From a virus (Duplodnaviria > Caudoviricetes): a DNA stretch of 64,000 nt. The notes under the pieces were generated by a model, which was not told where the DNA came from, made no database searches, and saw only the letters and a list, made by a program, of their open reading frames with translations. The stretch spans positions 1-64,000 of IMG/VR virus record IMGVR_UViG_3300028048_000112; one strand, given 5' to 3'. A program made the translations under genes and the position numbers. Shown here piece by piece: positions 14,337-56,727 of the stretch (the stretch's first letter is position 1; the number at the start of each line of letters is the position of its first letter).

Positions 14337-15767
14337 TTATTTGAAATCTGTATAATAAGATTCAGATAAAATATCTTCTGGCGAAAATTCATATTCTCCA
14401 AGAGTATATTCAGATTCGATATTATTTTCGTCGAACTTTTTTAATGTTCTTTTTATAAAACCTTTAGAAACAAAATTTTTCAAATGTTCATATATATCGA
14501 ATAGTGTTAATCCGAAATTATACATATCGAATATTTTTAGTTCATTCAATCGTATATTTTCCGAACGAGTTTTTCCAAAATCGTATTCTGACGATATTTT
14601 TGTATATACTTTTTTCGATGCTATTCGTTTTAATATAGCTTCGTTCACGTTTAATCGTTTTGCTAACATTCTAAAACTGTCATTTTTACTATAAATTCTA
14701 CCAGAATTGTTTAGTTTAAATTCTTGAATTTTTTCACATAAATATCTCACTTTATCTTCACTTAGTCGAAAATTGGTCTCGCCGTTCAATGTGATGTTTC
14801 TGTGAACGGATTTCTTGTGTCTAAAAATATCCCAAATTGGAAATAATGAAAAATCACTATAATATCCAATATTATTTTGAGAAAGCTCGAATTCATGTTT
14901 TATCGGTGTATATTCAGCATTTACACCATTATCAATAATATCATTATAACGTCGTCTTGTTTTAGTTGATATCATAGTTTCGGATTCTGTAATTGGTATA
15001 CCAAGTTTAAACGCGACGTCTATAGCATTTGAATTGTTTGATACCATGTCATTATATGTACTTCTTATAAAAACGTTTTTTGTAACGTTTTTATACATCC
15101 GTCTATTTATTATTTCACTAATAGTAGTTTTCGAAATGCCATATTTTTTCGATAATTCTAATGGCGTTAACCCGATGTTATAATTTTTACAAATATCTAA
15201 TACAATCTGATTATCAATCCTTTTAGATTTCTTGAATACTCTTGAATTATAATCGAAATCGTATTTAGAAATCATGTTATCGTATGTTATCCCTTTTAAC
15301 AGGTTTCTTACAAAATCTACACTCACCCCGAATCGTTTTGCTATTTTTGGAAACGAGTCATTATTAGTTTCACAAAATGCACATATATTTTCGGCAATTT
15401 TGTATCTATGAGGATCGTACCACTTTGTTCTATTGTTTGAATTCTCTGAATATGTTGCCCAACGCAAATTTTGAACATTATTATTTAATCTATTTCGATT
15501 AATGTGGTCTACAACAAGGTTTTTAAAATTTTTAGGAACTTTTAAGAATGTTAACGCTACTAATCTGTGCAATTGAAAGTGTTTTGTCTTTTTATATTTT
15601 GGACAATAAAGATCTACTCTCATGTATTGATCGTTAGTCGTATGTATTGCAGGAAATCGTTTGTTTTTTAAATCATAAACTATTCCAGAATCATTTATGA
15701 TATATCTGTCTTTTTCAAAATCAAAATGTGTATTGGTATTTTTACATAGTTTTTCGAACCCTTTCAT
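14337..15767 (-). mobile_element. Free-standing HNH homing endonuclease with repeated C-terminal HTH-like domains
   Basis: LHRLVALTFL...VVDHINRNRLNNNVQNLRWATYSENSNN is an HNH_3-type motif. There are three HTH-like segments (PKIAKRFGVS, ELSKKYGISKTTIS, RMLAKRLNVN). The gene is very AT-rich and lies opposite the adjacent late genes. Confidence 0.85.
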
Positions 15768-17716: not shown

Positions 17717-17856
17717 GTAGCACCTCCTGTCTTAAGTGTAAGAGTAAGATATATTGGAAAGATATTCTATACTCTTCATTAATATAATATATAACTAGGA
17801 TGTATAGTTTAACAGAAAAAAAAAATAAGACCCGGGGTAACTCCCGGGTCTTATTC

Positions 17857-18477: not shown

Positions 18478-18599
18478 AATTGACTCCTTATAGAAGGGTT
18501 TTAGATTTGGTTGTTTCCCTTCCTCATTATTATAATATATAATTATAACCCCCCCCCCAACAGAAATATAAAGAAGGGCCGAAACCCTTCTTTATATAT

Positions 18600-31297: not shown

Positions 31298-31350
31298 AAA
31301 AAAGAAACTCCCCTACTCACACCCACCTTTCGGCAGGTGCTTTCGGAGAG
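31298..31350 (-). ncRNA. Loop-E (AGUA/GAA) terminator hairpin, copy 1
   Basis: CUCUCC-GAAAG-CACCUGCC-GAAA-GGUGGGUG-UGAGUA-GGGGAG-UUUCUUUUUU. Confidence 0.7.
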
Positions 31351-31356
31351 GCCAGA

Positions 31357-31650
31357 TTACATTTCCCTAGTTACCTTAAGGAATTTGAATTCGCAATCTG
31401 GCGGCAGGGTTGTAGCACCTTCTGGCAGGCGGCCTTTTCTTAGCTGGGCCACGTACAGAATTTCTCCAGGTTCTATTTTTACATTGATACGATTGGGCTC
31501 ATAACCGAACACATGAGCCGTGTCGGCATGTCCAATTGCGGACTCCAATCCTTTTGGAAATTCTGCAACCTCTTCGATCAAAACGCGAGCAGGAAACTGA
31601 TCAATCATCTGAAGGCTGAATGCATTGCAAATATAAACTTTCTTTTCCAT
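31357..31650 (-). CDS. acrIII-1: AcrIII-1 viral ring nuclease (DUF1874/STIV B116 family), type III anti-CRISPR
   Basis: KVYICNAFSLQM, SAIGH41, PNR54, LYVAQ and GR74LPE77G match, in order, the family motifs I recall from SIRV1 gp29 (YLANAFS, SIGH, NR, LYVVQ, RLEEG). Confidence 0.85.
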   Translation of the reverse strand: MEKKVYICNAFSLQMIDQFPARVLIEEVAEFPKGLESAIGHADTAHVFGYEPNRINVKIEPGEILYVAQLRKGRLPEGATTLPPDCEFKFLKVTREM

Positions 31651-31743
31651 AATAATACTCCTTGGCTACTTTATCCAATGTGGGCCTCGTAACCTGAGGG
31701 GTGTATGGTTTTCTCTCCATACCACTTTACTATCTACTATTAT

Positions 31744-31779
31744 TATAATATATAAGTGAAAAGGGTGGTTGAACAGAAA
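31744..31779 (-). promoter_or_regulatory. Bipartite early promoter of acrIII-1
   Basis: Minus strand TTTCTGTT-N16-TTATATATTATA. Confidence 0.65.
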
Positions 31780-31816
31780 ATATAAACAGGGCCTTGTGAC
31801 CCTGTTTATTAATACT

Positions 31817-34033
31817 TTATGCCCAAGCGAAAGATTGTTTGAATAATGAATGAGGATCATTAGAAGTATCACGTTTTTCAATAACTTCAGCTTCTTTTTT
31901 CTCAGGTTCATCATCATCGAATACATAAGTTCCATCATCTCTGGTTTTACCATATTCTGGAGCATCATTAATGTATTCATCAGCAATCTTATCTACAATA
32001 ATGTCTTCTTCTTTAATCTTAGGAGAAGCATCATAATTTGTTAAATAATCCTCTGCTCCATAAGAAGTCTCTTCAGTTTCGAAACCACTTTGACCAAGAG
32101 CATTATCCATAGCAAGTTTAATTCTGTTTGTTACATGGGCATTATCTCTATCCCTATTTCTTAAATCTTTTTCTATAGATTTGAGTTTACCTCTATCGCC
32201 AAATACGTAATCCATCATAGCTCTATCAGAACCTCCATAAGCATAATTATTTAATTCATCCAATTCTTCTGTAGTATAATTTCCGTCGAGATTAGAATTG
32301 AAATAAATCAAATCCATATATTTACTCTTAGATTTACAATACATAATGAACCATCTACAGTAAAGATATGCTATAAGAAGGTCATCGTGTCCACCGTTTT
32401 GTTTATGATCTATACGGCCATTTTTATCGGTAATCAAACCTGCAATTTCGTCAATAATTGTTTTATCATGTATCTTATTACCATGCTCAAAGATAGACAC
32501 ACGGATTACATCTCCATACATCAACTTACGCAAATTATGAACCATAGATACACCAAGACGTTCATCTTTTTCATCTTTGTATATTCTAGATTGACTCATA
32601 TTTTCTGCAATAATTTCTGTTACAGGCAAACCAGTGTAGTTTCTTTCTGGAATAAGTACACTCTTTGGAAACAAATATGTTAAAATATATGCAACTGCTC
32701 TACCAAAACGTATAATAGAGAACTGATTACATCTCATAGTGAATACAACTTCAGAATTAGTAACATCTACACCAACTAATGTAGAAAAGTCTCGTCTATT
32801 ATTACCAGAACAGTCCATACCAAACACAATGTGATGTGATTGTGAACGTAATAGATCGGGATCTCTATAGAACTTACAAACATAAATTCTATCAACCATG
32901 ATAATACGTACTGGATCCATACCAGTTTTCATAAGTTCTTGAATACGTTCCTGACCCAATGGGTGGTCACTATTAGAATCTGTCCAATGGTTAAGAATAC
33001 CACGTTCAAATTCATCCATACCAGCCATTTCACGTCTTTGTTCTTCAAGATATGTTTCTGGTTTACCCAACTCATACCATTGGTACTCAATTCTTAAAAA
33101 GAATTTACCATGGTTATTATTCTGAATATATTCTTGAACAGCATCTTTATCTATACCAATATAATTACCATACTGATCGGTTACAGCGCAATCGTAAAGG
33201 AGTTCTGTAAATGGTGCACAATCATTGAAAAACTGATATGCCCATCCACCGCTTTTAGATTTTTTATTAGCAGCAGTAGTGGTAATAATAATATGGTGAT
33301 GAGATCCATTACGTTCTGCAGCTTTTGAAACTGTAGAATATGCAGGAATAGCAGCACCATACTGTACCCAAATATATGGAATAAAAGCAAACTCATCATA
33401 CCATTGACCCATAGTAGAAGCACCACGACCTACATTGTTTGCAGATTCTTCATTATTGCCTGGACTACGAGTAGTAATAGTATTAGAATATTCACCTGTT
33501 CTATAAATAATCGAATGTACGTTATCTGTATCTAAATTGGATTTTAGATTAAGATATGACGGAAGCGATTCTCTAACATCTTTTACACGAGATAAATTCT
33601 GTGTTACAAGAGTATCATTCTGTGCAAAAAATGCAGCATTAAAGTTTTTAGCTCCCCAATATATAATCCAAGAATAAAAACAAGCAACTGTATAAGATTT
33701 ATAACACTGACGAGGAATAACTACATATGAGTGCAAGTCATTTATCAATGTCCATAAAATTGCCAATGTTGCTCTAGTTAATTCAAAATCCAGTTTAATA
33801 TCAGTCATTGGAATTTTGACTATTTCTCGGAAATAATACCAAGGATTTTTACTTATTTCTATATGAACTCTAAGTTTTTGTTCGTTTGTTAAAGAATCTT
33901 CGTCTAATGGATCAATATCTAACAAAGTTTCATCATAAAGCTGTAAAAAGAATGTATTATTTTTAATTCCCATTTCTTTGAGAATATAATGCATTCTTAA
34001 GAACGAAACGTTCTTTGTATTGTATTGTAGCAT
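31817..34033 (-). CDS. terL: Terminase large subunit
   Basis: Walker A IPRQCYKS, Walker B QWYDEFAF, coupling motif IITTTA, and nuclease residues FGMDCSG and GGHDDLL. Confidence 0.9.
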   Translation of the reverse strand: MLQYNTKNVSFLRMHYILKEMGIKNNTFFLQLYDETLLDIDPLDEDSLTNEQKLRVHIEISKNPWYYFREIVKIPMTDIKLDFELTRATLAILWTLINDLHSYVVIPRQCYKSYTVACFYSWIIYWGAKNFNAAFFAQNDTLVTQNLSRVKDVRESLPSYLNLKSNLDTDNVHSIIYRTGEYSNTITTRSPGNNEESANNVGRGASTMGQWYDEFAFIPYIWVQYGAAIPAYSTVSKAAERNGSHHHIIITTTAANKKSKSGGWAYQFFNDCAPFTELLYDCAVTDQYGNYIGIDKDAVQEYIQNNNHGKFFLRIEYQWYELGKPETYLEEQRREMAGMDEFERGILNHWTDSNSDHPLGQERIQELMKTGMDPVRIIMVDRIYVCKFYRDPDLLRSQSHHIVFGMDCSGNNRRDFSTLVGVDVTNSEVVFTMRCNQFSIIRFGRAVAYILTYLFPKSVLIPERNYTGLPVTEIIAENMSQSRIYKDEKDERLGVSMVHNLRKLMYGDVIRVSIFEHGNKIHDKTIIDEIAGLITDKNGRIDHKQNGGHDDLLIAYLYCRWFIMYCKSKSKYMDLIYFNSNLDGNYTTEELDELNNYAYGGSDRAMMDYVFGDRGKLKSIEKDLRNRDRDNAHVTNRIKLAMDNALGQSGFETEETSYGAEDYLTNYDASPKIKEEDIIVDKIADEYINDAPEYGKTRDDGTYVFDDDEPEKKEAEVIEKRDTSNDPHSLFKQSFAWA

Positions 34034-34102
34034 ATATAGAATAGTTTTATATTATAAAGTAAACGTATCACATTTTTATATAATTTGTATGAGGTTTGAT
34101 TT

Positions 34103-34921
34103 ATGCCAGCATTAAATTACGATAATTTTATGCAACCTATGAAAGGACAGGCTGCATTTTCTCTAAGAGGCAAACTTGAAGAATATAAAAAACTTTATTT
34201 CGAATTATATGCTAAAGAATTATTAGTTTCTTGTGTATATAATAAACGATATGATAGATTCACTTTCTTTTTCAAACTTCCTAGTGCAGAAAATGATAAA
34301 TATCCTACTGCAATTATGTACGATATTGTCATCGAGTTTGATCCGAATAAAAAACTAAAGGACGCTTTGAAAAATTCTGCATCTATTAAGGATTATGATA
34401 TTTATATTTATTCTAATTCTCCTAGTTTTGTGTTTACATTTGATTATGTAGTAAAACACAGATATGGATTCCCACATTGTATACCATATAGTCATTTGAG
34501 CAAAGTTGCTGTAACCCAAGCCCCTGAAATAAGAAATACGTTTGAATTAATGACTGTTGAGAAAACAACTTGGATGTGTTTCTATCATTTGGTCTATAAT
34601 GGGTATATAAATAATAAAGAATTAGCTAAATCTCTTTCTATTCCTGGAAAAGATGAAAGTTTCTATATGAGACGTGTAGAAACTCAACCAAGAAAGCTGA
34701 AAGAGATAAAAGAACTTCACGAGATGATGAAAGAAGCAAAAGCTAAACAAAAAGCCGAAAAAAATAAAGGATTAGTAAAAGATTATGCTAAGCAACCTAA
34801 TCCTATGGCTTATTCTTTCAAAATGACAGATCGTAAAGAAAGATCATTAATGAAGTTTAATGATAAAAATAATTTTAAAAAGACTATGCATCAAGGATTT
34901 AGATTTGGAGGAAAGAAATAA
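34103..34921 (+). CDS. Hypothetical protein (late)
   Basis: 272 aa; late motif at 34069-34080. Confidence 0.7.
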   Translation: MPALNYDNFMQPMKGQAAFSLRGKLEEYKKLYFELYAKELLVSCVYNKRYDRFTFFFKLPSAENDKYPTAIMYDIVIEFDPNKKLKDALKNSASIKDYDIYIYSNSPSFVFTFDYVVKHRYGFPHCIPYSHLSKVAVTQAPEIRNTFELMTVEKTTWMCFYHLVYNGYINNKELAKSLSIPGKDESFYMRRVETQPRKLKEIKELHEMMKEAKAKQKAEKNKGLVKDYAKQPNPMAYSFKMTDRKERSLMKFNDKNNFKKTMHQGFRFGGKK

Positions 34922-35751
34922 TGCTTGAAAATATTATTGATGATAACGAAAACGCTGTAGAAATGGCTACAAGCGAAACACAACAAACCGAAATAGCCAA
35001 TCAGGCTATTCAGGAGTACATAGATGCTATACGCTCTCAAGCAGAATCTTGTATAAGAAAACCTGTAGAAGATGATTATTTTGAATCGTTTGCTAATGGA
35101 TTTTTAAAAATACCTGCTGAAGAGTTCTATGATTCTGCATATATTACAGATGATAAACTATCAAGAAATGATAAAGATTACATGACGATGTTTCTTGACG
35201 CAATGAATTACACATTCGAAATGAATTTCGGTATAAAATTGCTTGAACCTACATCTGGTATGCTTTATTCATTATATAAGATATTTATTACGAATTTCTC
35301 AGACTTTTTCTTGAATTATATATGCGGATTACAGAAACTTGATAGTTTGTACGAAGAAGATATTCCTAACTGGGAAGAACTTTCTTTCGAAAACTATAAA
35401 AAAATAACGGGAGTAACAACCCCCGCTATTTCTTATAATCTTGTAAATTCATACATAGATCACATAATCGAAAATGGCATTATAGCCGAAAGTTATTTCG
35501 ATATATGTGATCTAGAATCATCAGGTAACGACGATTTGACGTATCTCATGGTAGAAACAGCCAATTACAGGGTCCAGTATGATAATGAATTCTTCAGGAT
35601 TAAACTCGGAAAAATTCTTTCTACGAATGTAATACGCGATTCTATCGTTAATAAACTCGTAGATATACTTGCGCCCAATGAATCCGATGGAAACGTTTCT
35701 ACTGCTTCCCCCGAACTTCTCGACGTAGACGTCACAGAGCATGTCGACTAA
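34921..35751 (+). CDS. Hypothetical acidic protein
   Basis: 276 aa, TAATG-coupled to the upstream gene. Confidence 0.7.
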   Translation: MLENIIDDNENAVEMATSETQQTEIANQAIQEYIDAIRSQAESCIRKPVEDDYFESFANGFLKIPAEEFYDSAYITDDKLSRNDKDYMTMFLDAMNYTFEMNFGIKLLEPTSGMLYSLYKIFITNFSDFFLNYICGLQKLDSLYEEDIPNWEELSFENYKKITGVTTPAISYNLVNSYIDHIIENGIIAESYFDICDLESSGNDDLTYLMVETANYRVQYDNEFFRIKLGKILSTNVIRDSIVNKLVDILAPNESDGNVSTASPELLDVDVTEHVD

Positions 35752-36390
35752 TTGGTCTCTAAGCTCTTCAACGAACGGAATGATTTCAGCTTTATGCTGT
35801 TTAACAAGCTTTCTAACTTTTCTGTTATAAGCTCTTACATTCTTTACAAGGCTCGACATGTTCGGGCTTTGTATATTTTGCTTTATAGCTACTACTGCTT
35901 TATCACCACCATTGTATGCATAAAATGCATACGCATCACCATGTCTTTTATATAGATCGTGATAATAATTAATGGTCATTACCATATAATAGCAATATAC
36001 CGAAGTGATTTTAGATTCATCTTTCGGCTTAAAAGCATTTACAAACCGTTTGTTTTTAAGATTTGAAGAATTCAGTTGAGATGGTCCTAAGTCAACAGAA
36101 CCATTCTTATTAACATGACGAAATGCTGTAAAATTAGCACTTTCGTGAACCATTATTGAATAGAAATTCAAACGAATTTCCGGAAAGTCTTTAGTGTAAT
36201 AAAGAAAAGCTTCAGCATATTCTTCAGGTATAACACTTCTGTAATATTCCTCTTCAAATTCTATGTCAGATTTGATCTGATAAGAGATACAATAAAGATC
36301 ATTTCTGACTCTCTCTGGTACGCCTGATGAAGCGAAAAGATTGCTGATTGTCATGAAAGAGACAATCAGTACCAAAATTAAGTTTTTCAT
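35521..36390 (-). CDS. Lytic transglycosylase (SLT family) with an N-terminal signal peptide
   Basis: IMVHES (catalytic Glu)...NKNGSVDLGPSQLN and AYNGG motifs; MKNLILVLIVSFMTISNLFA is signal-like. Confidence 0.8.
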   Translation of the reverse strand: MKNLILVLIVSFMTISNLFASSGVPERVRNDLYCISYQIKSDIEFEEEYYRSVIPEEYAEAFLYYTKDFPEIRLNFYSIMVHESANFTAFRHVNKNGSVDLGPSQLNSSNLKNKRFVNAFKPKDESKITSVYCYYMVMTINYYHDLYKRHGDAYAFYAYNGGDKAVVAIKQNIQSPNMSSLVKNVRAYNRKVRKLVKQHKAEIIPFVEELRDQLVDMLCDVYVEKFGGSSRNVSIGFIGRKYIYEFINDRIAYYIRRKNFSEFNPEEFIIILDPVIGCFYHEIRQIVVT

Positions 36391-36596
36391 TTCATTTCCC
36401 TCATAAAATTGATGTATATTAGCTTTGTTTGGTGTAATTTAACACTAAACAAACCCCTCACAGTTATAATATATAAATAAAAAAATTAAAATAGGGCATG
36501 CATAAAGCATGCCCTCTCATTTATTATTCATCATTCCTCCTGTATATTTTTATTTTTACTGAACACAATTATGTATTTACTGAATACATTTATACA

Positions 36597-36791
36597 TTAG
36601 CATCCCAGAAACGCATACATTTCTGGTTGAGCTAACCTATGTTCAGACGAACCGAGCATAACCCCATCAAATGGGCTAAACCCGGTTCGTTTGACAAACT
36701 CAGAATATGACAGCAAATCATATCCCGAGGTCAAACCACCATTCTCGTCTGCTACTGGGTAGTAGTAACGAAAAACTTTAGGTTCGGTCAT
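36597..36791 (-). CDS. Small hypothetical protein (early cassette)
   Basis: GGAGG SD and promoter at 36865-36900; a hairpin at about 36822-36853 lies in the leader. Confidence 0.65.
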   Translation of the reverse strand: MTEPKVFRYYYPVADENGGLTSGYDLLSYSEFVKRTGFSPFDGVMLGSSEHRLAQPEMYAFLGC

Positions 36792-37076
36792 TTCGCCTCA
36801 CCTCCTTGTAAAGACGAGATTAAGGAAGAGTGGGGGCGACCACTCTTCCTTTTCTTTACAATATTATAATATACAATTGAATACTCCGTTTTACCAGAAA
36901 GAAGGGTTAAACCCTTCTTTTATTTTATTTTCTATATAACAATAAAATTATCTTCAAAAACCAGTTTTTCAAACATTATAATATATTTAATGATCGAATA
37001 TCACGCCGATATTTCATAGAAATTTCAGGCGGATAAATTGAATATTCAATATAAAACCTAGCTAGGAGGAATCACT

Positions 37077-39173
37077 ATGGCTATAGAAGACAGTGGTTTC
37101 GGCATTAGTAGCATTCAAGTTGTTGACAACTCTATTGCTACCGTTGCTGCTACAACCGCTCTTAACATTCTTCCTTCACTTCATCCTGTTTTCTCATCCG
37201 ACGGTAAAGACAACAAGATTTGTGAAATGAAGAATTTCAATAGTGTATTATCAAACTATGGCTCAGATTTCGCCGACATTAACACATTTGGTCAGCAGAA
37301 TTTGAACGTACAGCAGGTATTCGATGCTGGTGGATCTGGTTATATCTGCCGTCTTATGCCAGCTGACGCAACTTATGCTCATGCCGTTATTAAAGTCGGT
37401 GTACGTAAAGCCGATAACATCCCTGTTTATAAAAGAGATGGATTTGGTGAATACATTCTTGATGAAAATGGAAACAAAGTTCAACTTACTGCAAAACATT
37501 CAGAGACTGTAACCGTTGCTGGTCCTGATGGTGTTGATACTGAGCAGATTGTAGAAACTGAAGTTCCTGTAACTATGTCAGGTTTGGAACTTAAAGTTTT
37601 TGTCGATCATGCTACAAACGAAGAGCTTGCAAAGTATCCTTCACATCGCGCATTGACAACATTCTTTGAACGTAGTGGCACTGATGCTGATGGATATTTC
37701 GTAGTTCCTATGGCATTTGTACGTTATTATGCACGTGGTAAATGTGGTGGAAATTATGGTGTACGCATCATCAATGACTTCTTGAGAGATTCTAAAGTTA
37801 ATGATGGTCGTCGTTATCAGATCTTCCTCGGTAAAAAGACTTCAGCTGGTGTAGAAATTCTTTCAATCGGCAATGGATTGTCATTCTCTTTCAATCCAAA
37901 AGCTCAGATTTCTAAAACAATCAGCACTATTGAATCATTGCAGAAGATTTATCAGAACAACGATGAAAGTCTTCAGGAAAAGCAGATTCAGATTGAACAC
38001 TATATAAACAACTATGACAAATTGATGGCAAAGATTGGTGAAATCTTGTCTGAGGACGATAACCTTACTGAAGGTATCGATCCTGATTACGAACTTCGTC
38101 TTCCTGCAAGTGCTGAAGACGTAGACTTCTTTAATGGTTATGATAAAGAAGGCTATAGGTTCGATAACATTACTGTTGATGCAGATAGTGTTAACTTTAG
38201 CAATTATCAGTTCCTTCAGGGTGGTACTGATGGTGAATTCGAAGGTAAAACTGGTGATGAACTCGAAGCATTGAGAAATTCTATGCTTAAGTCATTCTTT
38301 AGTGGAGATGTTGATACAAACACCTTCATGAATGTTCTTAAGTGCGATGCTGGAATCATGTATGACGCAAACTATCCGTTGGATGTTAAACAGGCTATGG
38401 CCGGTGTTATTAACTATCGTCGTGATATTTGTGCTATTTTTGACTGTGGTTTCACAGAAAATCTCGAAGAAGCAGTTGCTGTTGCTAAGTCTATCAGAAC
38501 ATTTGCTGAATCTATGGATGGTGGCGAAAACTTCGCTATTTGTCCTCACTGTGGTGTAACTGCTGACCGTATTATTAACGTACGTGTTACAGGTACATAC
38601 GAAATGGCTTATGGTATTCATAGACTTTATCGTGTTTCACCATTTGCTATTTATGCTGGTCAGCAGAATGGCGATGCTGGTTGTGTACGTAAGACAATTT
38701 TTGACTGGGTAGTTGAGGAAACGAAGCCTCGTGGATATCAAGAAAAACTTGCTAAACAGAATAACCTCTATTGGGCAGTTGATCTTGGTAAAGCTCTCAG
38801 CACTCCTGCACAGGGTAACTACACAGGTAGAAATGTATACTTCTACAGCAATTCTTCTCTTTATACTGAGAAGATCAGTAAATTGGCAGAATTCCGTAAT
38901 GGTATTCTTGTTAATGACCTTCGTCGTGTTGTTAAACTTATCCTTGTCAAATACACATTTGATAATGATGGTGCTGACGCTGCAATTCAGAAAGCTACAT
39001 CTGAGCTCTCATCTAAGCTTTCTTCAAGGTATCCATCAAATGTTACTATTAACTATAACTTGTACCAGAGCGAACGCGATAAGCTTTTGAATATGGCTAC
39101 ATGTGAGTTGAAAGTAACGTTCCCTGACATTTTCGAAACGTGGACATGTTACATCTACGTAGAGAGAGCTTAA
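37077..39173 (+). CDS. Tail sheath protein
   Basis: 698 aa with a sheath-like C-terminus (YDANYPLDVK, RRDICAIFD, CELKVTFPDIFETWTCYIYV). It precedes the tube and tape measure genes. Late motif at 36972-36983. Confidence 0.8.
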   Translation: MAIEDSGFGISSIQVVDNSIATVAATTALNILPSLHPVFSSDGKDNKICEMKNFNSVLSNYGSDFADINTFGQQNLNVQQVFDAGGSGYICRLMPADATYAHAVIKVGVRKADNIPVYKRDGFGEYILDENGNKVQLTAKHSETVTVAGPDGVDTEQIVETEVPVTMSGLELKVFVDHATNEELAKYPSHRALTTFFERSGTDADGYFVVPMAFVRYYARGKCGGNYGVRIINDFLRDSKVNDGRRYQIFLGKKTSAGVEILSIGNGLSFSFNPKAQISKTISTIESLQKIYQNNDESLQEKQIQIEHYINNYDKLMAKIGEILSEDDNLTEGIDPDYELRLPASAEDVDFFNGYDKEGYRFDNITVDADSVNFSNYQFLQGGTDGEFEGKTGDELEALRNSMLKSFFSGDVDTNTFMNVLKCDAGIMYDANYPLDVKQAMAGVINYRRDICAIFDCGFTENLEEAVAVAKSIRTFAESMDGGENFAICPHCGVTADRIINVRVTGTYEMAYGIHRLYRVSPFAIYAGQQNGDAGCVRKTIFDWVVEETKPRGYQEKLAKQNNLYWAVDLGKALSTPAQGNYTGRNVYFYSNSSLYTEKISKLAEFRNGILVNDLRRVVKLILVKYTFDNDGADAAIQKATSELSSKLSSRYPSNVTINYNLYQSERDKLLNMATCELKVTFPDIFETWTCYIYVERA

Positions 39174-39188
39174 AGGAGTTTTTAGCAT

Positions 39189-40325
39189 ATGAGTTACGTT
39201 CCTCCAACACTGAAATCTTATGAAGGTATAAGTATTGCTGATCCTAACGGTGCCGGATACGGTATTGGTGGCATCAATGGTATGCACCATAACGATCCGG
39301 GTTGGGATAACACCACCGTAGGTATGGCATCTTCTGTATTCGATAACCTTTTGTCTCAGAATGGTGTTCGTACTAACGATCCAAACTATATTGGTGCTCT
39401 TGAACCTATTCGTTCTGGTCGCTTTATTGTAAAGTGGCTTAAACTCCCTACATTCTTCTCACCAACTGCAGCAAAGTATCTCAAGTTCTTCTTGGAAAAT
39501 GCTGTACGTCAGGTTTCAGGTGTTACAGATAGCCAGATTGCTGAAGCTGGTTCAGTAACATTCGGTGCAAACGGACAGGAAATGTCCTTCCCAGGAAACC
39601 TCAAAGAGAATAACAAGAACGTTACACTTACTACTATTACCTGTACTGGTGATGGTCTTGGTAAGCTTATGCGTTATTGGATGTATGGTATAACCGACCC
39701 TCAGACAAACGTACACCACATGTACGGAAAAGACCTTCGCTTCATTCGTCCCAATTACTGCGGTACACTTATGTATATCTTCATGGGACCAACTTGTCGT
39801 CCTGGAGATATTGAGTATGCCTGTATTTGGCATGAAGTATGGCCTACGTCTGGTGATGGTAAAGGTAAATGGGAATCAAATGAAATTGGTTCTGATACTG
39901 CTGTAGGTGAACAGACTGTAGAACTTTCTGGTATTTTCCAGGATGGTCCTGAAGTCAATATCTTGGCAAAGTATATCGTTGCTGGTACTGGTCTTGCTGG
40001 TCAGTCTTACTTTGATCAGATGCTTCCTGCTTATATGTATAATGAATACATCAATAAGCTTCAGTCACCTTCTAACGATGATTCAGAATTCATGTCATCC
40101 TTCTCATTGGCTCAGTCTCAGAAAATGGGTGCAGCCAACGTTGGTGCTGTTTATGGTGCGACTGATGGCGATGGTGCTAAGAAGATCAGAAACGATATCA
40201 CAGGAAAATATGGTATTGATGCTGCTAACTTGCCATCTGCTTCTTTCGACGCAACTAAGATGGTAGCAGAAATTAACGAATTTGGTGTAAACAAGTTCGA
40301 AGATCCTACTTCTTCAAAAAAGTAA
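39189..40325 (+). CDS. Tail tube protein
   Basis: Position after the sheath, tube-fold segments (SGRFIVKW, YACIWHEVWPT) and biased codon use. Confidence 0.7.
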   Translation: MSYVPPTLKSYEGISIADPNGAGYGIGGINGMHHNDPGWDNTTVGMASSVFDNLLSQNGVRTNDPNYIGALEPIRSGRFIVKWLKLPTFFSPTAAKYLKFFLENAVRQVSGVTDSQIAEAGSVTFGANGQEMSFPGNLKENNKNVTLTTITCTGDGLGKLMRYWMYGITDPQTNVHHMYGKDLRFIRPNYCGTLMYIFMGPTCRPGDIEYACIWHEVWPTSGDGKGKWESNEIGSDTAVGEQTVELSGIFQDGPEVNILAKYIVAGTGLAGQSYFDQMLPAYMYNEYINKLQSPSNDDSEFMSSFSLAQSQKMGAANVGAVYGATDGDGAKKIRNDITGKYGIDAANLPSASFDATKMVAEINEFGVNKFEDPTSSKK

Positions 40326-40432
40326 ATTGAGTTTATGATTTTTTTTACACCCAGGATTTATTCCTGGGTGTTTTATATTGATTTATATGGTGAAAATCGA
40401 CATTTTTATATACTTAATAGAGGGTTATTTAT

Positions 40433-50134: not shown

Positions 50135-52288
50135 ATGGCTGAGATTGATATAGATAGTAGTTTGAAAACTAATCAAACTGCTGCTGAAGCATATAATGAC
50201 TTTAACGTCGATAGAGCCGGTTTATATGAAAATACGATGAATGAACGTATGCAAAACAATAACAACATCTATCGACATGAAAATTTCGATGTGTATATAA
50301 AAGACGTTATGACTGGTCAAACTATTCCTTATATGACTACTTTGGATCCTATAAGAATGGCTAGAGCTGGTAATAATCCTGAAGATGATGCTTCACTTGT
50401 ATATAAGCACAATATAAGTTCTAGTACATTAGGTCAAATGCGTGTTAATTCATCAGACCATTTTAATGCTAGATCATGTGTAGAAGCATTAGGATTATAT
50501 ACTACCACATACATAAAAGAACAAGTTATGAATATGGGAGATAAAAACTCAGATTTGGGTGCTATGGAAGATCGTACAGCAGTAAATAACATGACCTTCC
50601 GTAATTATCTTAAAACCGGCACAATGCAAGATGCTGCTGGTCGACCTGTAATCAAAATGAACAGCGAAGATCAAAAGGATTATGAACGTGTTCCTGCTAA
50701 CTTAGGAATAGGTTTAGGTGAAGCATTTGTATTAAATCCTGTATTCCAATTCAATAAACGTGATGATCCTAGAACTAATCCAGTTTATACAAAAATAGGT
50801 CGTGTATATTCTACAAGAGTTATGAATAACTGGCCTATAGCACTATTTCAACCCGGACGATTAAAATATAATACCGGATTTATGAAATTGATTGGTCTTT
50901 TCGGTGGCGCAGGACCTAACGAAGCTTACATTAGATCTGGTGGCGAAGGTTTAATGGGAATCATTTCGACATTCTTGACCACTCTTACAGATATTGGCGC
51001 AACCATTGGTGCTATTGGTAGTGCAGTATTTGGTGGATCTAAACTTGTTGAATTCCGTCAAGCAATTAAACTATTTAACGTTTATTATAGATCATTCTTA
51101 ATCTCACTTTCTCAAATGATGGGTTTGTGGCATAACAATCCTGAAGGTAAATATGTCTATGGAGGACATGTAGACGATTTACAAATATGGAATATGCTAC
51201 CAACATTACATATGAATGGATTTCTTAGTAGATTCTTAAATGCTCAATTCATTCCATTCCGTTGTCAGAAAGGAATGATTGGTAGCGAAACATTCAGCAA
51301 TAATACTGAAGAAAACCCGTTGATGGAAGAGATGAACTCTCAAGCTACACAAAATGATGATACTGTTTCTCAAGGTAGTGTAGGATCATGGATTCAAGAC
51401 AAACTTAAAGGTGTTTTGGGGCAATTCTCTGATAAAGCTGCTGTTCTTGCTGGTAACGGACGTATTACATTACCTAACGTTTATTCATCTTCTTCATTCT
51501 CAAGATCATTTAACTGCGATTTCGAATTCCATTATCCGTATGGTGATGTTCTTGGTAAGTTTGAAAATCTTTATATACCATTAATTACATTATTGACTAT
51601 GGGATTACCTAGACAGACTGGTAAATTGGTATACACATCTCCATTTGCAGTAAGAGTATTTGTTAAGAATCATATTATGATAAACTTTGGGATGATACAA
51701 TCTATTTCTGTAACTAGAGGTGGAGATTCTAATGACTGGGGTCCAGATGGTTATCCTAAAACATTGAAAGTTACTGTTACTATACAAGATATGGAACCTA
51801 ATATTTCATTGCCATTATCTGCACGTGGTCCTCTTCGTTGGGGTCTTGAAACACTATTCCCTGCATCAGGATTCTCAGAATATCTGGCTACTCTTGGTGG
51901 TTTGGAAATAGATCAGTTACTATCTAACTCCAAAGATGGTTCTTTTAAACGTGCAATGAATGTATTCCGTTCATCATGGTCAGCAAAATTGAATCCTGAC
52001 AATATGTTAGCTTCTATTGTTAACTGCAGACCTATAGCAAGCATAATGTCATACTTTAGAGCAACAGATATGGAATCTATCAATAGAGCTGGAGACTTGA
52101 ATAGAATTTGGCAAGATAATGCTAATGAATCTCTTTCAAATCCTATGGCATTCTCTCCAGAATCATTCCACTCTATGATGGATTTGGGTGGTGCTACTAA
52201 AGTCAATAAGGATAGTCAAGCTGGTGAAACTCAGGTTACACAAGCTATTAACGCTGAATCTAATCCAGCATTTAGAAACAATTCTTGA
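50135..52288 (+). CDS. Baseplate hub / tail-tube cap protein (T4 gp48/54-like C-terminal fold)
   Basis: SSFSRSFNCDFEF...YTSPFAVRV...GMIQSISVTRGG...DGYPKTLKVTVTIQDM; late motif at 50099-50110. Confidence 0.6.
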   Translation: MAEIDIDSSLKTNQTAAEAYNDFNVDRAGLYENTMNERMQNNNNIYRHENFDVYIKDVMTGQTIPYMTTLDPIRMARAGNNPEDDASLVYKHNISSSTLGQMRVNSSDHFNARSCVEALGLYTTTYIKEQVMNMGDKNSDLGAMEDRTAVNNMTFRNYLKTGTMQDAAGRPVIKMNSEDQKDYERVPANLGIGLGEAFVLNPVFQFNKRDDPRTNPVYTKIGRVYSTRVMNNWPIALFQPGRLKYNTGFMKLIGLFGGAGPNEAYIRSGGEGLMGIISTFLTTLTDIGATIGAIGSAVFGGSKLVEFRQAIKLFNVYYRSFLISLSQMMGLWHNNPEGKYVYGGHVDDLQIWNMLPTLHMNGFLSRFLNAQFIPFRCQKGMIGSETFSNNTEENPLMEEMNSQATQNDDTVSQGSVGSWIQDKLKGVLGQFSDKAAVLAGNGRITLPNVYSSSSFSRSFNCDFEFHYPYGDVLGKFENLYIPLITLLTMGLPRQTGKLVYTSPFAVRVFVKNHIMINFGMIQSISVTRGGDSNDWGPDGYPKTLKVTVTIQDMEPNISLPLSARGPLRWGLETLFPASGFSEYLATLGGLEIDQLLSNSKDGSFKRAMNVFRSSWSAKLNPDNMLASIVNCRPIASIMSYFRATDMESINRAGDLNRIWQDNANESLSNPMAFSPESFHSMMDLGGATKVNKDSQAGETQVTQAINAESNPAFRNNS

Positions 52289-52380
52289 AATATTTGTTAA
52301 ATATGCTAGGGATCCAATCCCTAGCATATATTTTATTTACGAATTTACAATTTTATATACTATATCGAGGTTAACCAACT

Positions 52381-53586
52381 ATGCGCATAGCCGATACAAA
52401 TTTCAATTCAATATCACTTGGTTCTGATTCTAATAGAGATACTATAGGAATAGTATTCAAAACCTCTGCAGAATTAAATAATAGACCGTTGTTAGGTTTA
52501 ATTATTCCTAAATTCATGATAGGTTACGACTTTAGAAATGGTGATAAACCGTCAGATACAGATCTCAAAATTTCTGGTTCTAAATGTATTAATGACGAAT
52601 CGTGTAAGAAATTCTGGGATACAGACATAAACATTAAGAACTATATATTAGTAAGACCTTATTTAAATCAAAACATTTCGATGCCTTTGTATACTGTTGG
52701 AGATAAGGTTATTGTAACTGTGATTGATAATGATATAAAAACGTTAGCATTTTTACCATATTCAATCAATCGTCTTGGTCAAAGAGCTACTGATAAATTT
52801 ATGGCTTCGGTTCCAGCTAATCCTAAAGAAAACACATCATTGACTGAAAATAACACATACTTTATTAAACTTGATTCAAAAGCTAAAGTTCTTATTCTTT
52901 CAACATCAAAAGAAAATGGAGAAACTGCTGCTCAAACAATAGGTATGGATCCAGGAAATGGTCAAATTGCTATTACAGATAACGATAAGCTTGTTTGGAT
53001 GATGGATACTAATCAAGATGCTATAACAAGTAAAACGTCTGGAACAACTATCGAGCAAAAGTCTAATGCTATAACAATGACTGGAGATATCATTAACCTG
53101 AATGGTGAATCTCAAGTTAATATAAAAACTGATGCTATGAATGTAGATTCAAATACGATAAAATCTAAAGCAACGGACGCTAAATATGAATACGATTCAT
53201 TTACACATACTAGTCAAATGGGTAAATGGGAAGTAGATACTGAAGAGCATAGTAATATGGCAATGGCTGTAAAAGCTTCAACATATCATAATGATACACC
53301 AATAATAGGTTTGAATGGAAATACAATATTCCCATCATTTACAATTGGTGCTGTACCAAATATAAACGTTCCTGTAGCTCCTACAGCAGGATTATCAGGT
53401 CCTCAAGGATCAATGCTAATGCAAACAGATCCTGGTGCTGTACCATTAGTAAAATTCCCGCAATTGGTTCCGATATTACGTGCTATTGCTTCTGCGGCAG
53501 ATTCTTATCCATCTGGTGGTGGTTCAGCTTCTGCAGCTGTTGCACAATTGGCTAATGCTGCTACTACGAAAATGATGTCATCGTGA
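52381..53586 (+). CDS. Baseplate central spike (gp5/VgrG-like OB fold plus beta-helix)
   Basis: The OB-like PLYTVGDKVIVT segment is followed by short beta-repeat segments; baseplate context. Confidence 0.55.
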   Translation: MRIADTNFNSISLGSDSNRDTIGIVFKTSAELNNRPLLGLIIPKFMIGYDFRNGDKPSDTDLKISGSKCINDESCKKFWDTDINIKNYILVRPYLNQNISMPLYTVGDKVIVTVIDNDIKTLAFLPYSINRLGQRATDKFMASVPANPKENTSLTENNTYFIKLDSKAKVLILSTSKENGETAAQTIGMDPGNGQIAITDNDKLVWMMDTNQDAITSKTSGTTIEQKSNAITMTGDIINLNGESQVNIKTDAMNVDSNTIKSKATDAKYEYDSFTHTSQMGKWEVDTEEHSNMAMAVKASTYHNDTPIIGLNGNTIFPSFTIGAVPNINVPVAPTAGLSGPQGSMLMQTDPGAVPLVKFPQLVPILRAIASAADSYPSGGGSASAAVAQLANAATTKMMSS

Positions 53587-53596
53587 GGTAAAAAAA

Positions 53597-54037
53597 ATGA
53601 ATTTAACTACTATACACAACAATAATCAAAGCTTTTCTTCTACAGTAATTCAACAAATACGAAATAGTGCAAACATAGAAAAAGCTTCATATCCTGAAAG
53701 ATATACTAATCCAGAATTAAACAAATTCACAACTAGCAATTTGAATATGATTCTTAGAGATAATATTCTTATTGGTAAATATTTTAACAAAATCAAATCT
53801 ACTGCTAGAACAATAACTCTATCAAGAGAATTGAATATCCGCTATAGATTTAAACCAGAATTGTTAGCTTCTGATGAATTTGGTATGCCAGGTTTATGGT
53901 ATGTAATACTTAAACTAAATGGTTGTGAAGATTTTTCCGAATTCCACGATTTACAGTATGTTATAGTACCAGATTTACATACTATAACACAATGTATTCT
54001 CGATGAAGAATACATACTAGAAAAAGAAGTTTTATAA
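53597..54037 (+). CDS. Baseplate wedge LysM-like protein (T4 gp53-like)
   Basis: YRFKPELLASDEFGMPGLWYVILKLNG matches the gp53/LysM pattern. Confidence 0.7.
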   Translation: MNLTTIHNNNQSFSSTVIQQIRNSANIEKASYPERYTNPELNKFTTSNLNMILRDNILIGKYFNKIKSTARTITLSRELNIRYRFKPELLASDEFGMPGLWYVILKLNGCEDFSEFHDLQYVIVPDLHTITQCILDEEYILEKEVL

Positions 54038-54070
54038 AAAAAAAGAAGGGCTTAACAGCCCTTCTTTTAA

Positions 54071-54637
54071 TTAAAATTCAATCACGTTTAGGTTAAACCT
54101 TTTAGACATCGTATAAGAGAGATTCTTTTTCATAACCTCTTTTTCTTTATCTGTATAAGGTCTATAACCTAAGAGAGTTTTCTTATAGTAGGATGATAAT
54201 GCGTAATTTACAATTTCGCTATTGAGAAACGCATTCTTACGAATCCCAAGTTTATTGAACGCATACTTGTCAGCTTCTTGCTCGAGTTTCATGTCATTGC
54301 ACTCATAGTTTTTGTGTCCTAATACAATGTGGCCAATCTCATGCCATAACACAAAACGTTTTGCTGTTCCTCTCGTATCACCATTCTTAACATGACGAAC
54401 GATATAATGACGAGAAGCTGTGAATTTATTCTTCTTAAGAGAATAAGTTATAGTTCGTTCAAATGCTGAACCTCCTCCACAAGAAGATAATACTTTCTTA
54501 GTTTTTCTAGACAACTTGATCGAGTTGTCTAAGAAAATCTTGTCGAAATCGACATTTATGACAGTGATCTCATGATTTTCAACTTTCATGGTCTCAATAT
54601 CACCAATGCCGATTAACACCTCCAAATCTCTATTCAT
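54071..54637 (-). CDS. HExxH zinc-metalloprotease-like protein (HEIGH family, copy 3)
   Basis: VLWHEIGHIVLGH...LEQEADKYA; GGAGGAG SD. Confidence 0.7.
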   Translation of the reverse strand: MNRDLEVLIGIGDIETMKVENHEITVINVDFDKIFLDNSIKLSRKTKKVLSSCGGGSAFERTITYSLKKNKFTASRHYIVRHVKNGDTRGTAKRFVLWHEIGHIVLGHKNYECNDMKLEQEADKYAFNKLGIRKNAFLNSEIVNYALSSYYKKTLLGYRPYTDKEKEVMKKNLSYTMSKRFNLNVIEF

Positions 54638-54652
54638 CTTTAATACTCCTCC

Positions 54653-54931
54653 TTAGTATTTTAATGAGACCGATTCGAAATAACGCTCAGCGTCGAGCTT
54701 CGCACCTTCCAGCGTCATATAACGATTCCTGATGTTAAACTTAGGATAATCTTCAGGATCAATATCCACTTCGTCTTTAACACATATTGATCCCCAATAA
54801 TATCCTTCATTATTTTCTTCAGGAAATACAGCTACTATAATACGATTACTGTAATTGTCCTCGTATTCCCAGTATTGAATGGCTTTTTCATAAAGTTCAT
54901 TCAAATCGACTTTGATCGATTCTATAATCAT
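54653..54931 (-). CDS. Small acidic hypothetical protein (early cassette)
   Basis: Start reassigned behind an AAAGGAG SD; early motif at 54977-54988. Confidence 0.65.
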   Translation of the reverse strand: MIIESIKVDLNELYEKAIQYWEYEDNYSNRIIVAVFPEENNEGYYWGSICVKDEVDIDPEDYPKFNIRNRYMTLEGAKLDAERYFESVSLKY

Positions 54932-55051
54932 AATTACTCCTTTGGATAGATATAGTTTTCTTGTTCTACCCATTAATATAATATATAAATAATAAAAAAA
55001 TAAAGGCAGTCATTAATGACTGCCTTTATTTATAGATCAAGAAAATGTTTA

Positions 55052-55591
55052 TTAATGATTGTGAATATATAAATCTTTTCTATATAAAGCACTTTTGCAT
55101 CTACAGATATTCCACCATTCATTCATTTCTTTCTGATCATCTTCTGTAAATGTCATGCCAGATAACATTATAGCTTCATCTTGATCTATAGTACCTTTTC
55201 CTAATTTAGTCATAATAGATTTTTTCAACCATTCATCTTCTAGTTTCATTATAGTAACAAAATTCTTTAAAGTTATGAACCTAGAAAAGTTTTTTCTAAA
55301 ATATCGTCGATATTTATTAAATTTAAGAACTAGATCTTTATTAGATTCGTAATATTTTTTGGACCGTTCAAGATATTTGTCTTTATGAGTTTCACGATAA
55401 TTTTTACAATATTCTCTTTTCTCTTCCTTATGATTCTCATAATACTTTTTACAATATTTCTTATTATACTCTTTATAAATCTCGCGATATTTTTTTCTGT
55501 CTTCTTTATGAGATTCACGATAATTTTTATAATAATCTTTATGAGTCTCATAATGCTTCTTCCAATATTCTCTTTTCTCTTCATTATTCAT
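55052..55591 (-). CDS. Basic YY(E/K)xHK-repeat protein, paralog A
   Basis: N-terminal K/R/Y/E repeats and a C-terminal domain almost identical to paralog B; start reassigned to ATG 55591. Confidence 0.75.
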   Translation of the reverse strand: MNNEEKREYWKKHYETHKDYYKNYRESHKEDRKKYREIYKEYNKKYCKKYYENHKEEKREYCKNYRETHKDKYLERSKKYYESNKDLVLKFNKYRRYFRKNFSRFITLKNFVTIMKLEDEWLKKSIMTKLGKGTIDQDEAIMLSGMTFTEDDQKEMNEWWNICRCKSALYRKDLYIHNH

Positions 55592-55949
55592 CTCCAATAC
55601 TCCTTTTGAGCAGGTTTGATTTTTTTTTATCCTACTCATTAATATAATATATAAATAATAAAAAAATAAAGGCAGTCTTAAAAAGACTGCCTTTATTTAT
55701 GGATTAAGAAAAAGCGCTTTTACATCTACAGATGTTCCACCATTCATTCATTTCTTTCTGATCATCTTCTGTAAATGTCATGCCAGATAACATTATAGCT
55801 TCATCTTGATCTATAGTACCTTTTCCTAATTTAGTCATAATAGAACGTTTCAACCATTCATCTTCCAGTTTCATTATAGTAACAAAATTCTTTAAAGTTA
55901 TGAACCTAGAAAAGTTTTTTCTAAAATATCGTCGATATTTATTAAATTT
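55086..55949. repeat. Direct repeat of about 240 nt (55086-55325 and 55711-55949), plus duplicated promoter/terminator blocks
   Basis: The 3' halves of the two paralogs are near-identical, and the CATTAATATAATATATAAATAATAAAAAAATAAAGGCAGTC block occurs at both 54971 and 55637. Confidence 0.9.
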
Positions 55950-56258
55950 GAGAATTTGATCTCTATGAGATTCACGATATTTTTTAGCTTGTTCTTTTTG
56001 CTTTTCGCTACGATTCTCATAATACTTTTTATAATGGTCTTTATGAGCCTCGTAATATTTTTTAGCTTTGGCTTTTTGATTTTCTTTATGAGTCTCATAA
56101 TACTCTTTCCAATGTTTCTTCGTATACTCTTTCCTTTCTTCTTTATGAGTCTCATAATACTTTTTCCAATGTTTCTTCATATACTCTTTCCTTTCTTCTT
56201 TATGAGTCTCATAATACTTTTTCTGGTATTCTTTGTTCTTTTCCTTATCCTTAATCAT
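55704..56258 (-). CDS. Basic YYETHK-repeat protein, paralog B
   Basis: 19-aa (57-nt) tandem unit EY(M/T)KKHWK(K/E)YYETHKEERK; C-terminus shared with paralog A. Confidence 0.75.
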   Translation of the reverse strand: MIKDKEKNKEYQKKYYETHKEERKEYMKKHWKKYYETHKEERKEYTKKHWKEYYETHKENQKAKAKKYYEAHKDHYKKYYENRSEKQKEQAKKYRESHRDQILKFNKYRRYFRKNFSRFITLKNFVTIMKLEDEWLKRSIMTKLGKGTIDQDEAIMLSGMTFTEDDQKEMNEWWNICRCKSAFS

Positions 56259-56325
56259 ATATTTAATACTCCTTTTGAATAGGTTTGGATTTTATTTTCC
56301 TATTCATTAATATAATATATAACTA

Positions 56326-56372
56326 AAAAAAGAAATCCTACTCACACCTTTCGGTGCTTTCGGATTTCTTTT
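56326..56372 (-). ncRNA. Loop-E (AGUA/GAA) terminator hairpin, copy 3
   Basis: AAAGAAAUCC-GAAAG-CACC-GAAA-GGUG-UGAGUA-GGAUUUCUUU-UUU. Confidence 0.7.
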
Positions 56373-56388
56373 AGAGACTACTTTTGGA

Positions 56389-56589
56389 TCACCATCCAAA
56401 TACAACTTTTCTCAATTTAATGAAGAAAGTTTTTACTGTGATCCAAATCTTCTTTACCACTCTAACTGGCAAAGAAGATCTTTTGTCAGATGACCAGCTC
56501 TCGAGCTCTTCGAGACTGATCGTGTGATACTTACCATTGCGGATGTTATCAGCAATGATTTCCGCCAGAACGTTGTTTACCGTATTCAT
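56389..56589 (-). CDS. 66-aa hypothetical protein with a basic amphipathic C-terminus (early cassette)
   Basis: Start reassigned to ATG 56589 behind a GAGG SD; bipartite promoter at 56646-56681. Confidence 0.65.
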   Translation of the reverse strand: MNTVNNVLAEIIADNIRNGKYHTISLEELESWSSDKRSSLPVRVVKKIWITVKTFFIKLRKVVFGW

Positions 56590-56727
56590 ATAATACCTCT
56601 TGAAGATAGGGATTGAGATTTTGGTTGTTTCCCCTTCTTCAGTATTATAATATATAAGTGGGGGGGGGGATTGAACAGAAATAAATATAGTGACTCTGGA
56701 ATAATCCAGAGTCACTTATATGTTAAA

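Follow-up and report, generated by a model that had tools for sequence, protein, structure and literature searches.

In T4-type phages, the promoter early stem-loop (PeSL) cassettes place a terminator stem-loop and a strong early promoter between ORFan genes (Arbiol et al., 2010, PMC2839356; PMC4122927). In the jumbo phage AR9, 41 mapped early start sites follow the pattern AAATATATATTAT-(6N)-G, the promoter that the injected virion RNA polymerase (RNAP) uses (Lavysh et al., 2017, PMC5312081). Lambdoid morons provide a third precedent, being self-contained promoter-gene-terminator units, expressed from the prophage, that sit between conserved genes. Here, we analyze three loci (31298–31779, 47844–48466 and 56326–56681) on the minus strand of a 64,000-nucleotide stretch of viral DNA (the window), which forms the first 64 kb of an 88,955-bp contig (IMG/VR record IMGVR_UViG_3300028048_000112, designated G000). 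Each locus combines a CTGTT-containing upstream element, a promoter core, a leader, one small open reading frame (ORF) and a hairpin with a loop-E-type internal loop. We consider it probable that the three loci are modular early-gene units of an AR9-type jumbo phage, composed of a promoter, an optional box, an optional loop-E terminator and exchangeable ORFans. The frame consists of two separate regulatory parts, the box and the hairpin, used separately by many unrelated small early genes, and therefore does not mark the unknown genes within it as anti-defense genes.

The source of the window is an uncultured bovine-gut jumbo phage related to phiKZ and AR9, and the contig represents approximately 32% of its genome (CheckV estimate). 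The public runs containing the stretch are bovine gut metagenomes. Pattern scans provided three relatives, G001 (263,686 bp, 94% complete), G002 (129,605 bp) and G003 (30,193 bp), the last of which is near-identical to the window. Split RNAP β and β′ fragments are encoded in G001 and G002, and the large terminase is nearest to those of AR9-like Bacillus and Staphylococcus jumbo phages and other phiKZ-related phages, with approximately 31% identity. A crAss-like phage, suggested by a 2180-amino-acid (aa) ORF and Pfam tail families, was ruled out by three features, namely that the contig is a fragment of a genome of approximately 270 kb, that the relatives carry split RNAPs, and that the terminase groups as described. 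A tblastn search with the first 1000 residues of the 2180-aa ORF gave no match in the phage collection.

The promoter core is the known component of these units, whereas the clade-specific upstream box and the loop-E-type terminator are new. At the three loci, the core comprises TATATATTAT, 6 nucleotides (nt) and then a G (an A at locus 1), matching the AR9 early consensus. The contig carries the exact TATATATTAT at 22 places on its minus strand and at one on its plus strand, with no occurrence of the reversed control, and enrichment extends to G001, G002 and the AR9-like phages Goe21 and S6. Downstream of almost all copies there are a leader, a Shine-Dalgarno sequence, a small ORF and a terminator, so that the three loci belong to a larger set of at least 22 early units and do not form a special trio. 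The units thus share with the early promoters of AR9 and phiKZ-related phages (Lavysh et al., 2017, PMC5312081) the 10-mer with a purine start 6 nt downstream and the many strand-biased copies ahead of small early genes. They differ in that approximately one fifth of the promoters here add a CTGTT(C/A)AA box 22–23 nt upstream, followed by a G/C-rich spacer. In our proposed mechanism, each unit would consist of an AR9-type promoter read by the virion RNAP (TATATATTAT, 6 nt, start), a leader, one or two small genes and an intrinsic terminator. The early expression proposed in the original prediction is consistent with this agreement of the core with the AR9 consensus.

The layout described in that prediction is found at all three loci, with every part in its place on the minus strand: TTTCTGTTCAA and a C-rich spacer precede the core TATATATTATAATA, and after the leader and a single small ORF come a hairpin, interrupted by the GAAA/GAGUA internal loop, and a U-tract. 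At locus 1, the upstream element (31755–31779) contains the CTGTT box (31772–31776) within TTTCTGTTCAA and the C-rich spacer, and the box begins 22 nt ahead of the core (31741–31754), which fits the AR9 consensus with a predicted start near 31738. After a leader of 88 nt comes cargo 1 (31357–31650, 97 aa), which resembles the AcrIII-1/DUF1874 ring nucleases, and then the terminator (31298–31350), whose hairpin occupies 31308–31350 and whose U-tract occupies 31298–31307. The upstream element of locus 2 (48441–48466) has its CTGTT box from 48463 and a C-rich spacer, with a spacing of 23 nt to the AR9-consensus core (48427–48440; predicted +1 G at 48424). Its leader of 117 nt lacks a Shine-Dalgarno sequence and precedes cargo 2 (47918–48307), a 129-aa helical protein by its predicted model, and the terminator (47844–47898) consists of a loop-E-type hairpin (47858–47898) and a U-tract. 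At locus 3, the upstream element (56657–56681) carries the CTGTT box from 56678 and a C10 spacer, followed by the AR9-consensus core (56643–56656; predicted +1 G at 56640), a leader of 51 nt from the predicted start, and cargo 3 (56389–56589), a 66-aa protein with a basic amphipathic C-terminal helix. Its loop-E-type hairpin and U-tract (56326–56372) are directly followed by the next early promoter (56308–56321).

The exact 10-mer TTCTGTTCAA is found three times in the window and nowhere else in the contig (31769–31778, 48456–48465 and 56671–56680). Meanwhile, the hairpin pattern CCGAAA..TGAGTAGG also occurs three times in the window, compared with 0.03 expected. Within the window, the two coincide only at these three sites, and a comparison of the 97-, 129- and 66-aa proteins found no relationship among them; both observations had been made in the original prediction and stand.

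The three hairpins fold as drawn, with z-scores from −4.0 to −6.6. Across nine copies from the contig and its close relatives, 96.6% of the cells are paired, seven pairs show compensatory change, and the GAAA/GAGUA loop is invariant. A covariance model detects four strong copies in the contig (31.3, 47.8, 56.3 and 85.8 kb; the fourth at 85827–85894), three in G002 and one in G003, and no loop-E hairpin in G001 (best E 0.15). By applying the model to a metagenome scan, we obtained 23 matches, of which three are the G002 copies again, giving at least 20 further loci, including contigs of 199, 307 and 331 kb. Covariation is again seen in this set, and all 23 hairpins carry GAAA/GAGUA. In the Rfam search, only a tRNA reaches the threshold and nothing is reported over the hairpins, and a library keyword search combining sarcin-ricin, terminator hairpin and bacteriophage returned no paper.

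AGUA opposite GAA is the consensus of the bulged-G motif, also known as the sarcin-ricin or loop E motif. The internal loop here shows exactly these letters between two helices supported by covariation, and like the sarcin-ricin and eukaryotic loop E it has helices on either side and is invariant across copies. On the other hand, it lies within an mRNA terminator hairpin rather than in rRNA, and the resemblance is one of sequence and pairing, with the S-turn geometry putative. We also considered a K-turn; by our reasoning, it would require a 3-nt bulge with tandem G-A pairs after it, which the strands do not provide.

No copy is more than approximately 20 nt from a stop codon. A U-tract comes after each one, and in many cases the next promoter as well, just as in the plain terminators of neighboring units. 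The hairpins are stable and rich in G+C, with the U-tract directly after them and downstream of the stop codon, as in intrinsic terminators. Because each copy stands just after a stop codon and before a U-tract, termination would be the simplest role for the hairpin. The invariance of the loop suggests that the hairpin may also contribute to RNA stability or bind protein; in the proposed mechanism, the GAAA/GAGUA-loop hairpin would end transcription and would probably also stiffen or protect the 3′ end of the RNA.

A different weighting of these roles is possible, though we favor it less, in which the hairpin would act primarily in protein binding or RNA stability, for example as the site of a phage or host RNA-binding regulator, and only secondarily in termination. 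An ordinary terminator has no need of a loop that stays invariant in the 9 and 23 copies while its stems covary, and bulged-G motifs are common platforms for protein binding. The motif is also retained in three metagenome contigs of 199–331 kb (L065, L078 and L083) in which no TATATATTAT core is found within 2.5 kb upstream. Against this weighting stand the position of each copy, which is that of the plain terminators nearby, and the lack of an Rfam family or a known binding partner. A variant motif, TATACATTATAGT, follows the loop-E-type terminators of L065 and L083 and is not found after that of L078.

We next turn to the upstream box. Among the 114 promoters of G000, G001 and G002, CTGTT starts 22–23 nt upstream of the core in 22, whereas every other offset is represented at most once. 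An exact scan finds 5, 12 and 4 cases in G000, G001 and G002, respectively, and none in Goe21 and S6. The consensus is (A/T)CTGTT(C/A)AA(A/C)C, and the spacer after it is commonly a run of C. In two cases, the spacer is a run of G instead (G10 at 18528 in G000 and G6 at 2283 in G001). The first of these belongs to a further box-type promoter of the window (CTGTT, G10 spacer and core; 18528–18563, minus strand) ahead of a 206-aa gene with a plain terminator, and another (CTGTTAAAC, spacer and core; 17780–17815, minus strand) precedes a 55-aa gene that likewise has a plain terminator. The end of the contig truncates a poly-C promoter at 88.9 kb. In G000, the box is mostly found at the first promoter of an early gene island. 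The box is a real, clade-specific promoter subclass. In mechanistic terms, CTGTT(C/A)AA at approximately −38 with the C- or G-rich spacer after it would define this subclass.

Two other assignments of the box were rejected. As a divergent late promoter, with AACAG on the opposite strand, it would have its ATATA at a distance of 3, 4 or 7 nt, compared with the fixed 5 nt of the late-type motifs. As a sigma-70 −35 element it fails as well, the sequence at the right spacing being unlike TTGACA. In one contig of a DNA run that may come from the source sample, the C10 spacer at 56657–56668 has a variant that is one base longer. This variant and the difference between spacings of 22 and 23 nt may reflect tuning driven by slippage.

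Locus 3 points to an exchange of cargo between such frames. The cassette at 56.3–56.7 kb and one cassette of G002 agree on the 5′ side from the box through the C10 spacer, core and leader to the start codon, and on the 3′ side from the hairpin through the U-tract to the next promoter. The common frame is approximately 90% identical (88% over the 52-nt leader and 96% in the hairpin region), and the ORFs inside it are unrelated, with 66 aa in the window and 76 aa in G002, the latter hydrophobic and membrane-like by eye. The cargo-3 hairpin is also identical over 43 nt to the hairpin of a 335-aa unit of G002, and the leader type of this cassette heads two other box-type units with different ends in the contig. 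In G001, the AcrIII-1 unit is missing, and the gap between the terminase and its neighbor is 80 nt. Since none of the 20 G000 proteins compared is common to G002, the common frame may belong to a paralogous cassette of one genome type instead of reflecting allelic replacement. The swapping of cargo genes through shared ends, as originally proposed, is supported at the level of sequence by the same 5′ and 3′ frame around unrelated genes, and recombination between frames could be what moves the cargo. As a separate observation, window positions 56259–56327 (promoter and leader) are the only segment in common with an RNA-library contig of another study. That contig has another ORF beginning at the ATG position and, on the upstream side, a plain GC hairpin, so that a single frame again encloses different cargo.

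Among known systems, this arrangement is nearest to the PeSL cassettes, in which variable regions likewise contain repeated composites of stem-loop and early promoter between small ORFan genes, with conserved frames around unrelated genes. We propose that here too the regulatory frames would be conserved while the inner genes are exchanged. It differs from PeSL in using an AR9-type virion-RNAP core rather than a sigma-70-type promoter with −35 and −10 boxes; the sequence at the −35 position is unlike TTGACA. In addition, some promoters here have the extra CTGTT box, and some terminators have the loop-E-type internal loop. With lambdoid morons, the units share the self-contained organization between conserved genes, exemplified by the AcrIII-1 unit beside the terminase. 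In contrast to the prophage expression of morons, the genes here are lytic early genes of a virulent-type jumbo phage.

Among the cargos, only the first resembles a characterized protein. Cargo 1 matches PHROG 5063 (5.8e-12) and the PDB entries 2x4i (5e-8), 6scf (4.6e-7) and 2j85 (7.7e-4), and its score against Pfam PF08960 (1.8e-5, 25.2 bits) is just below the 26-bit cut-off. It aligns over residues 3–79 with gp29 of Sulfolobus islandicus rod-shaped virus 1 (SIRV1; 2x4i), with IGH against IGH and RLPEG against RLEEG, and retains the equivalents of His47, Arg85 and Glu88. In SIRV1 gp29, His47 is reportedly catalytic, and Arg85 and Glu88 are said to contact cyclic tetra-adenylate (cA4). By this similarity, cargo 1 is AcrIII-1-like, and its earlier reading as a recognizable anti-CRISPR (clustered regularly interspaced short palindromic repeats) protein is supported by Pfam, PHROG and PDB. 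Compared with the AcrIII-1 proteins (SIRV1 gp29, PDB 2x4i and 6scf; B116 of Sulfolobus turreted icosahedral virus, PF08960), it is shorter (97 versus 114 aa), scores below the Pfam cut-off, and comes from a bacterial jumbo phage, where it is recognized from its sequence.

For cargos 2 and 3, only 5–7 close homologues are present among 5.8 billion clusters, and neither has a match in Pfam, PHROGs or PDB sequences, which are general libraries, none of them dedicated to anti-defense. A profile search with cargo 2 against 1.84 billion representatives recovers its own cluster alone. Its model is helical (predicted local distance difference test, pLDDT, 72) and has no specific match in Foldseek PDB/BFVD, ESM Atlas or VIA-align (best Z 6.8, generic helices). 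The model of cargo 3 is poor (pLDDT 67), and an identical protein is on record from a 279-kb contig. In the cargo-2 leader (48308–48424, minus strand), which starts with GAGGAG/AAGGAAG, pairing is possible between AGGAAG and the CUUCCU that lies just ahead of the ATG. The contig, its relatives and the metagenomes yield approximately 25 more cargos from box-type or hairpin-ended units, all of them small proteins with no family match. Among the approximately 30 cargos, only the AcrIII-1 gene is annotated. The frame predicts nothing beyond a small early accessory gene. An anti-defense role for cargos 2 and 3 is a reasonable prior for small, early, clade-restricted phage genes, to which the cassette adds little, and reasoning from the frame would draw on a single annotated neighbor-in-kind.

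Whether the box and the hairpin go together bears directly on how the frame is read. In G000, the hairpin is found at 3 of 6 box-type promoters and at 1 of 18 others (Fisher p = 0.035), and pooling with G002 gives p = 0.036. Each part is also found without the other. The hairpin at 85.8 kb in G000 closes a two-gene unit whose promoter has no box, and that at 114.3 kb in G002 closes the 335-aa unit, also without a box. In the metagenome set, several hairpins stand behind promoters lacking the box (e.g. L058 and L062), and approximately 10 have no core within 2.5 kb. Conversely, the box occurs without the hairpin at all 13 box-type promoters of G001 and at three of G000, whose units finish with plain terminators or with another repeated 3′ element. 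The box and the hairpin are separately assorting parts, and their association is weak. In the proposed mechanism, the two optional parts would happen to occur together at the three loci. A second repeated 3′ element, consisting of a hairpin, CTGTACCGGATTGCTACGG and a U-tract, ends other early units in G000 (approximately 88.60, 88.10 and 81.62 kb; L011). Unlike the loop-E hairpin, it is also conserved in the distant G001 (approximately 90.5, 246.6 and 258.2 kb), where three of four copies follow box-type promoters.

These distributions bear on the explanation originally put forward, in which the box, the core and the loop-E terminator form a dedicated immediate-early counter-defense cassette and cargos 2 and 3 are new anti-CRISPR or anti-defense proteins. 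Part of the evidence is in line with it: one cargo is AcrIII-1-like, the coincidence of box and hairpin in the contig exceeds chance, and the cargos are small proteins that are restricted to the clade and differ between relatives. In addition, such jumbo phages face RNA-targeting type III CRISPR. We nevertheless regard this explanation as unlikely, because each of the two parts is found without the other in the contig, its relatives and the metagenomic loci, because the further cargos carry no annotation, anti-defense or other, and because the 76-aa G002 cargo in the same frame appears membrane-like. The scan of the contig and its relatives for the promoter-hairpin pair upholds an association above chance in the contig without strict pairing. 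The cargo catalog does agree with the expectation that the genes are not housekeeping genes, consisting as it does of small proteins without a family match, yet the single annotation among approximately 30 cargos gives no ground for guilt by association. An elaborated version appears about equally improbable, in which a clade of rumen jumbo phages maintains an exchangeable pool of first-wave genes in standard frames, the box is an ‘immediate’ signal for an injected factor, the loop-E terminator is bound by a specific protein governing the fate of the mRNAs, and the unknown cargos, the 129- and 66-aa proteins among them, are new counter-defense factors beside AcrIII-1.

It is also doubtful that TTTCTGTT belongs to the terminator of the upstream gene as its tail, or acts as an insulator, and abuts the promoter by chance without being a promoter element: a hairpin and a T-rich run do lie just upstream of CTGTT at most box-type promoters, and similar tails are found on terminators of non-early genes (e.g. 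TTTATATTTTGTT and TTTATATTTGTTC), but the spacing to the core is constant at 22–23 nt in 22 cases while that to the upstream hairpin is variable, and no upstream hairpin accompanies the box at 48456–48465 (beside a divergent gene) and at 257413 and 224886 of G001.

Transcript assemblies provide a further view of the units. The cargo-2 unit appears as a separate contig in three RNA libraries from two studies (47914–48454, 47916–48416 and 47965–48411), and another RNA-library contig spans the 2180-aa ORF almost end to end. Coming from assembled contigs alone, these are a weak hint of discrete cargo-2 transcripts. In a DNA run (X1), we observed many short ‘joints’ with sides of only 21–37 nt, which probably reflect other loci with common motifs.

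Several observations weigh against our reading of the loci as modular early-gene units. One RNA-library contig of the cargo-2 unit (X2) extends 30 nt upstream of the predicted start. The rule that the box marks the first promoter of an island fails in G001, where 8 of 13 box-type promoters and 34 of 53 others hold this position. No recognizable RNAP subunit is found in the 89-kb G000 contig, which is 32% complete, and the lack of a protein common to G000 and G002 among the 20 compared leaves a paralogous origin of their common frame possible. In addition, the association of box and hairpin above chance in G000 makes some functional link possible.

Further features of the contig were noted beside the early units. 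An ACA-N5-ATATA motif lies approximately 20–25 nt before the start codons of non-early genes (40433, 52381, 34103, 50135, 62367 and 7559, the last two on the minus strand, and others) and resembles the AR9 late promoter AACA-(6N)-TA/G. A tRNA-like gene at 47368–47445 (minus strand; Rfam tRNA, 51 bits) has its own early promoter (47463–47476) directly upstream, and ARAGORN calls it ‘tRNA-???’ with the four-base anticodon cccg. The tandem early genes at 55704–56258 and 55052–55597 (minus strand) are mutual paralogues, and at least four more paralogues are scattered in G001 (42–67% identity). The early gene at 54071–54637 (minus strand) gives a weak HEXXH-type peptidase signal (M78/M48) below the cut-off, and 14337–15767 (minus strand) encodes an HNH endonuclease with a helix-turn-helix domain.

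Taken as modular early-gene units, the loci provide a sequence-level transcription map for an uncultured cattle-gut jumbo-phage clade. They extend the AR9-type early promoter to distant relatives, add a clade-specific box at fixed spacing, and document a conserved, covarying terminator with a bulged-G internal loop. The presence of an AcrIII-1-like gene in such a phage is consistent with what is known of jumbo phages, which are exposed to type III CRISPR. Frame conservation and cargo exchange like those of PeSL would now be seen outside the T4 group. The frames may serve as search handles for small early genes, the usual class of anti-defense genes, while function is not predicted by the frame alone.

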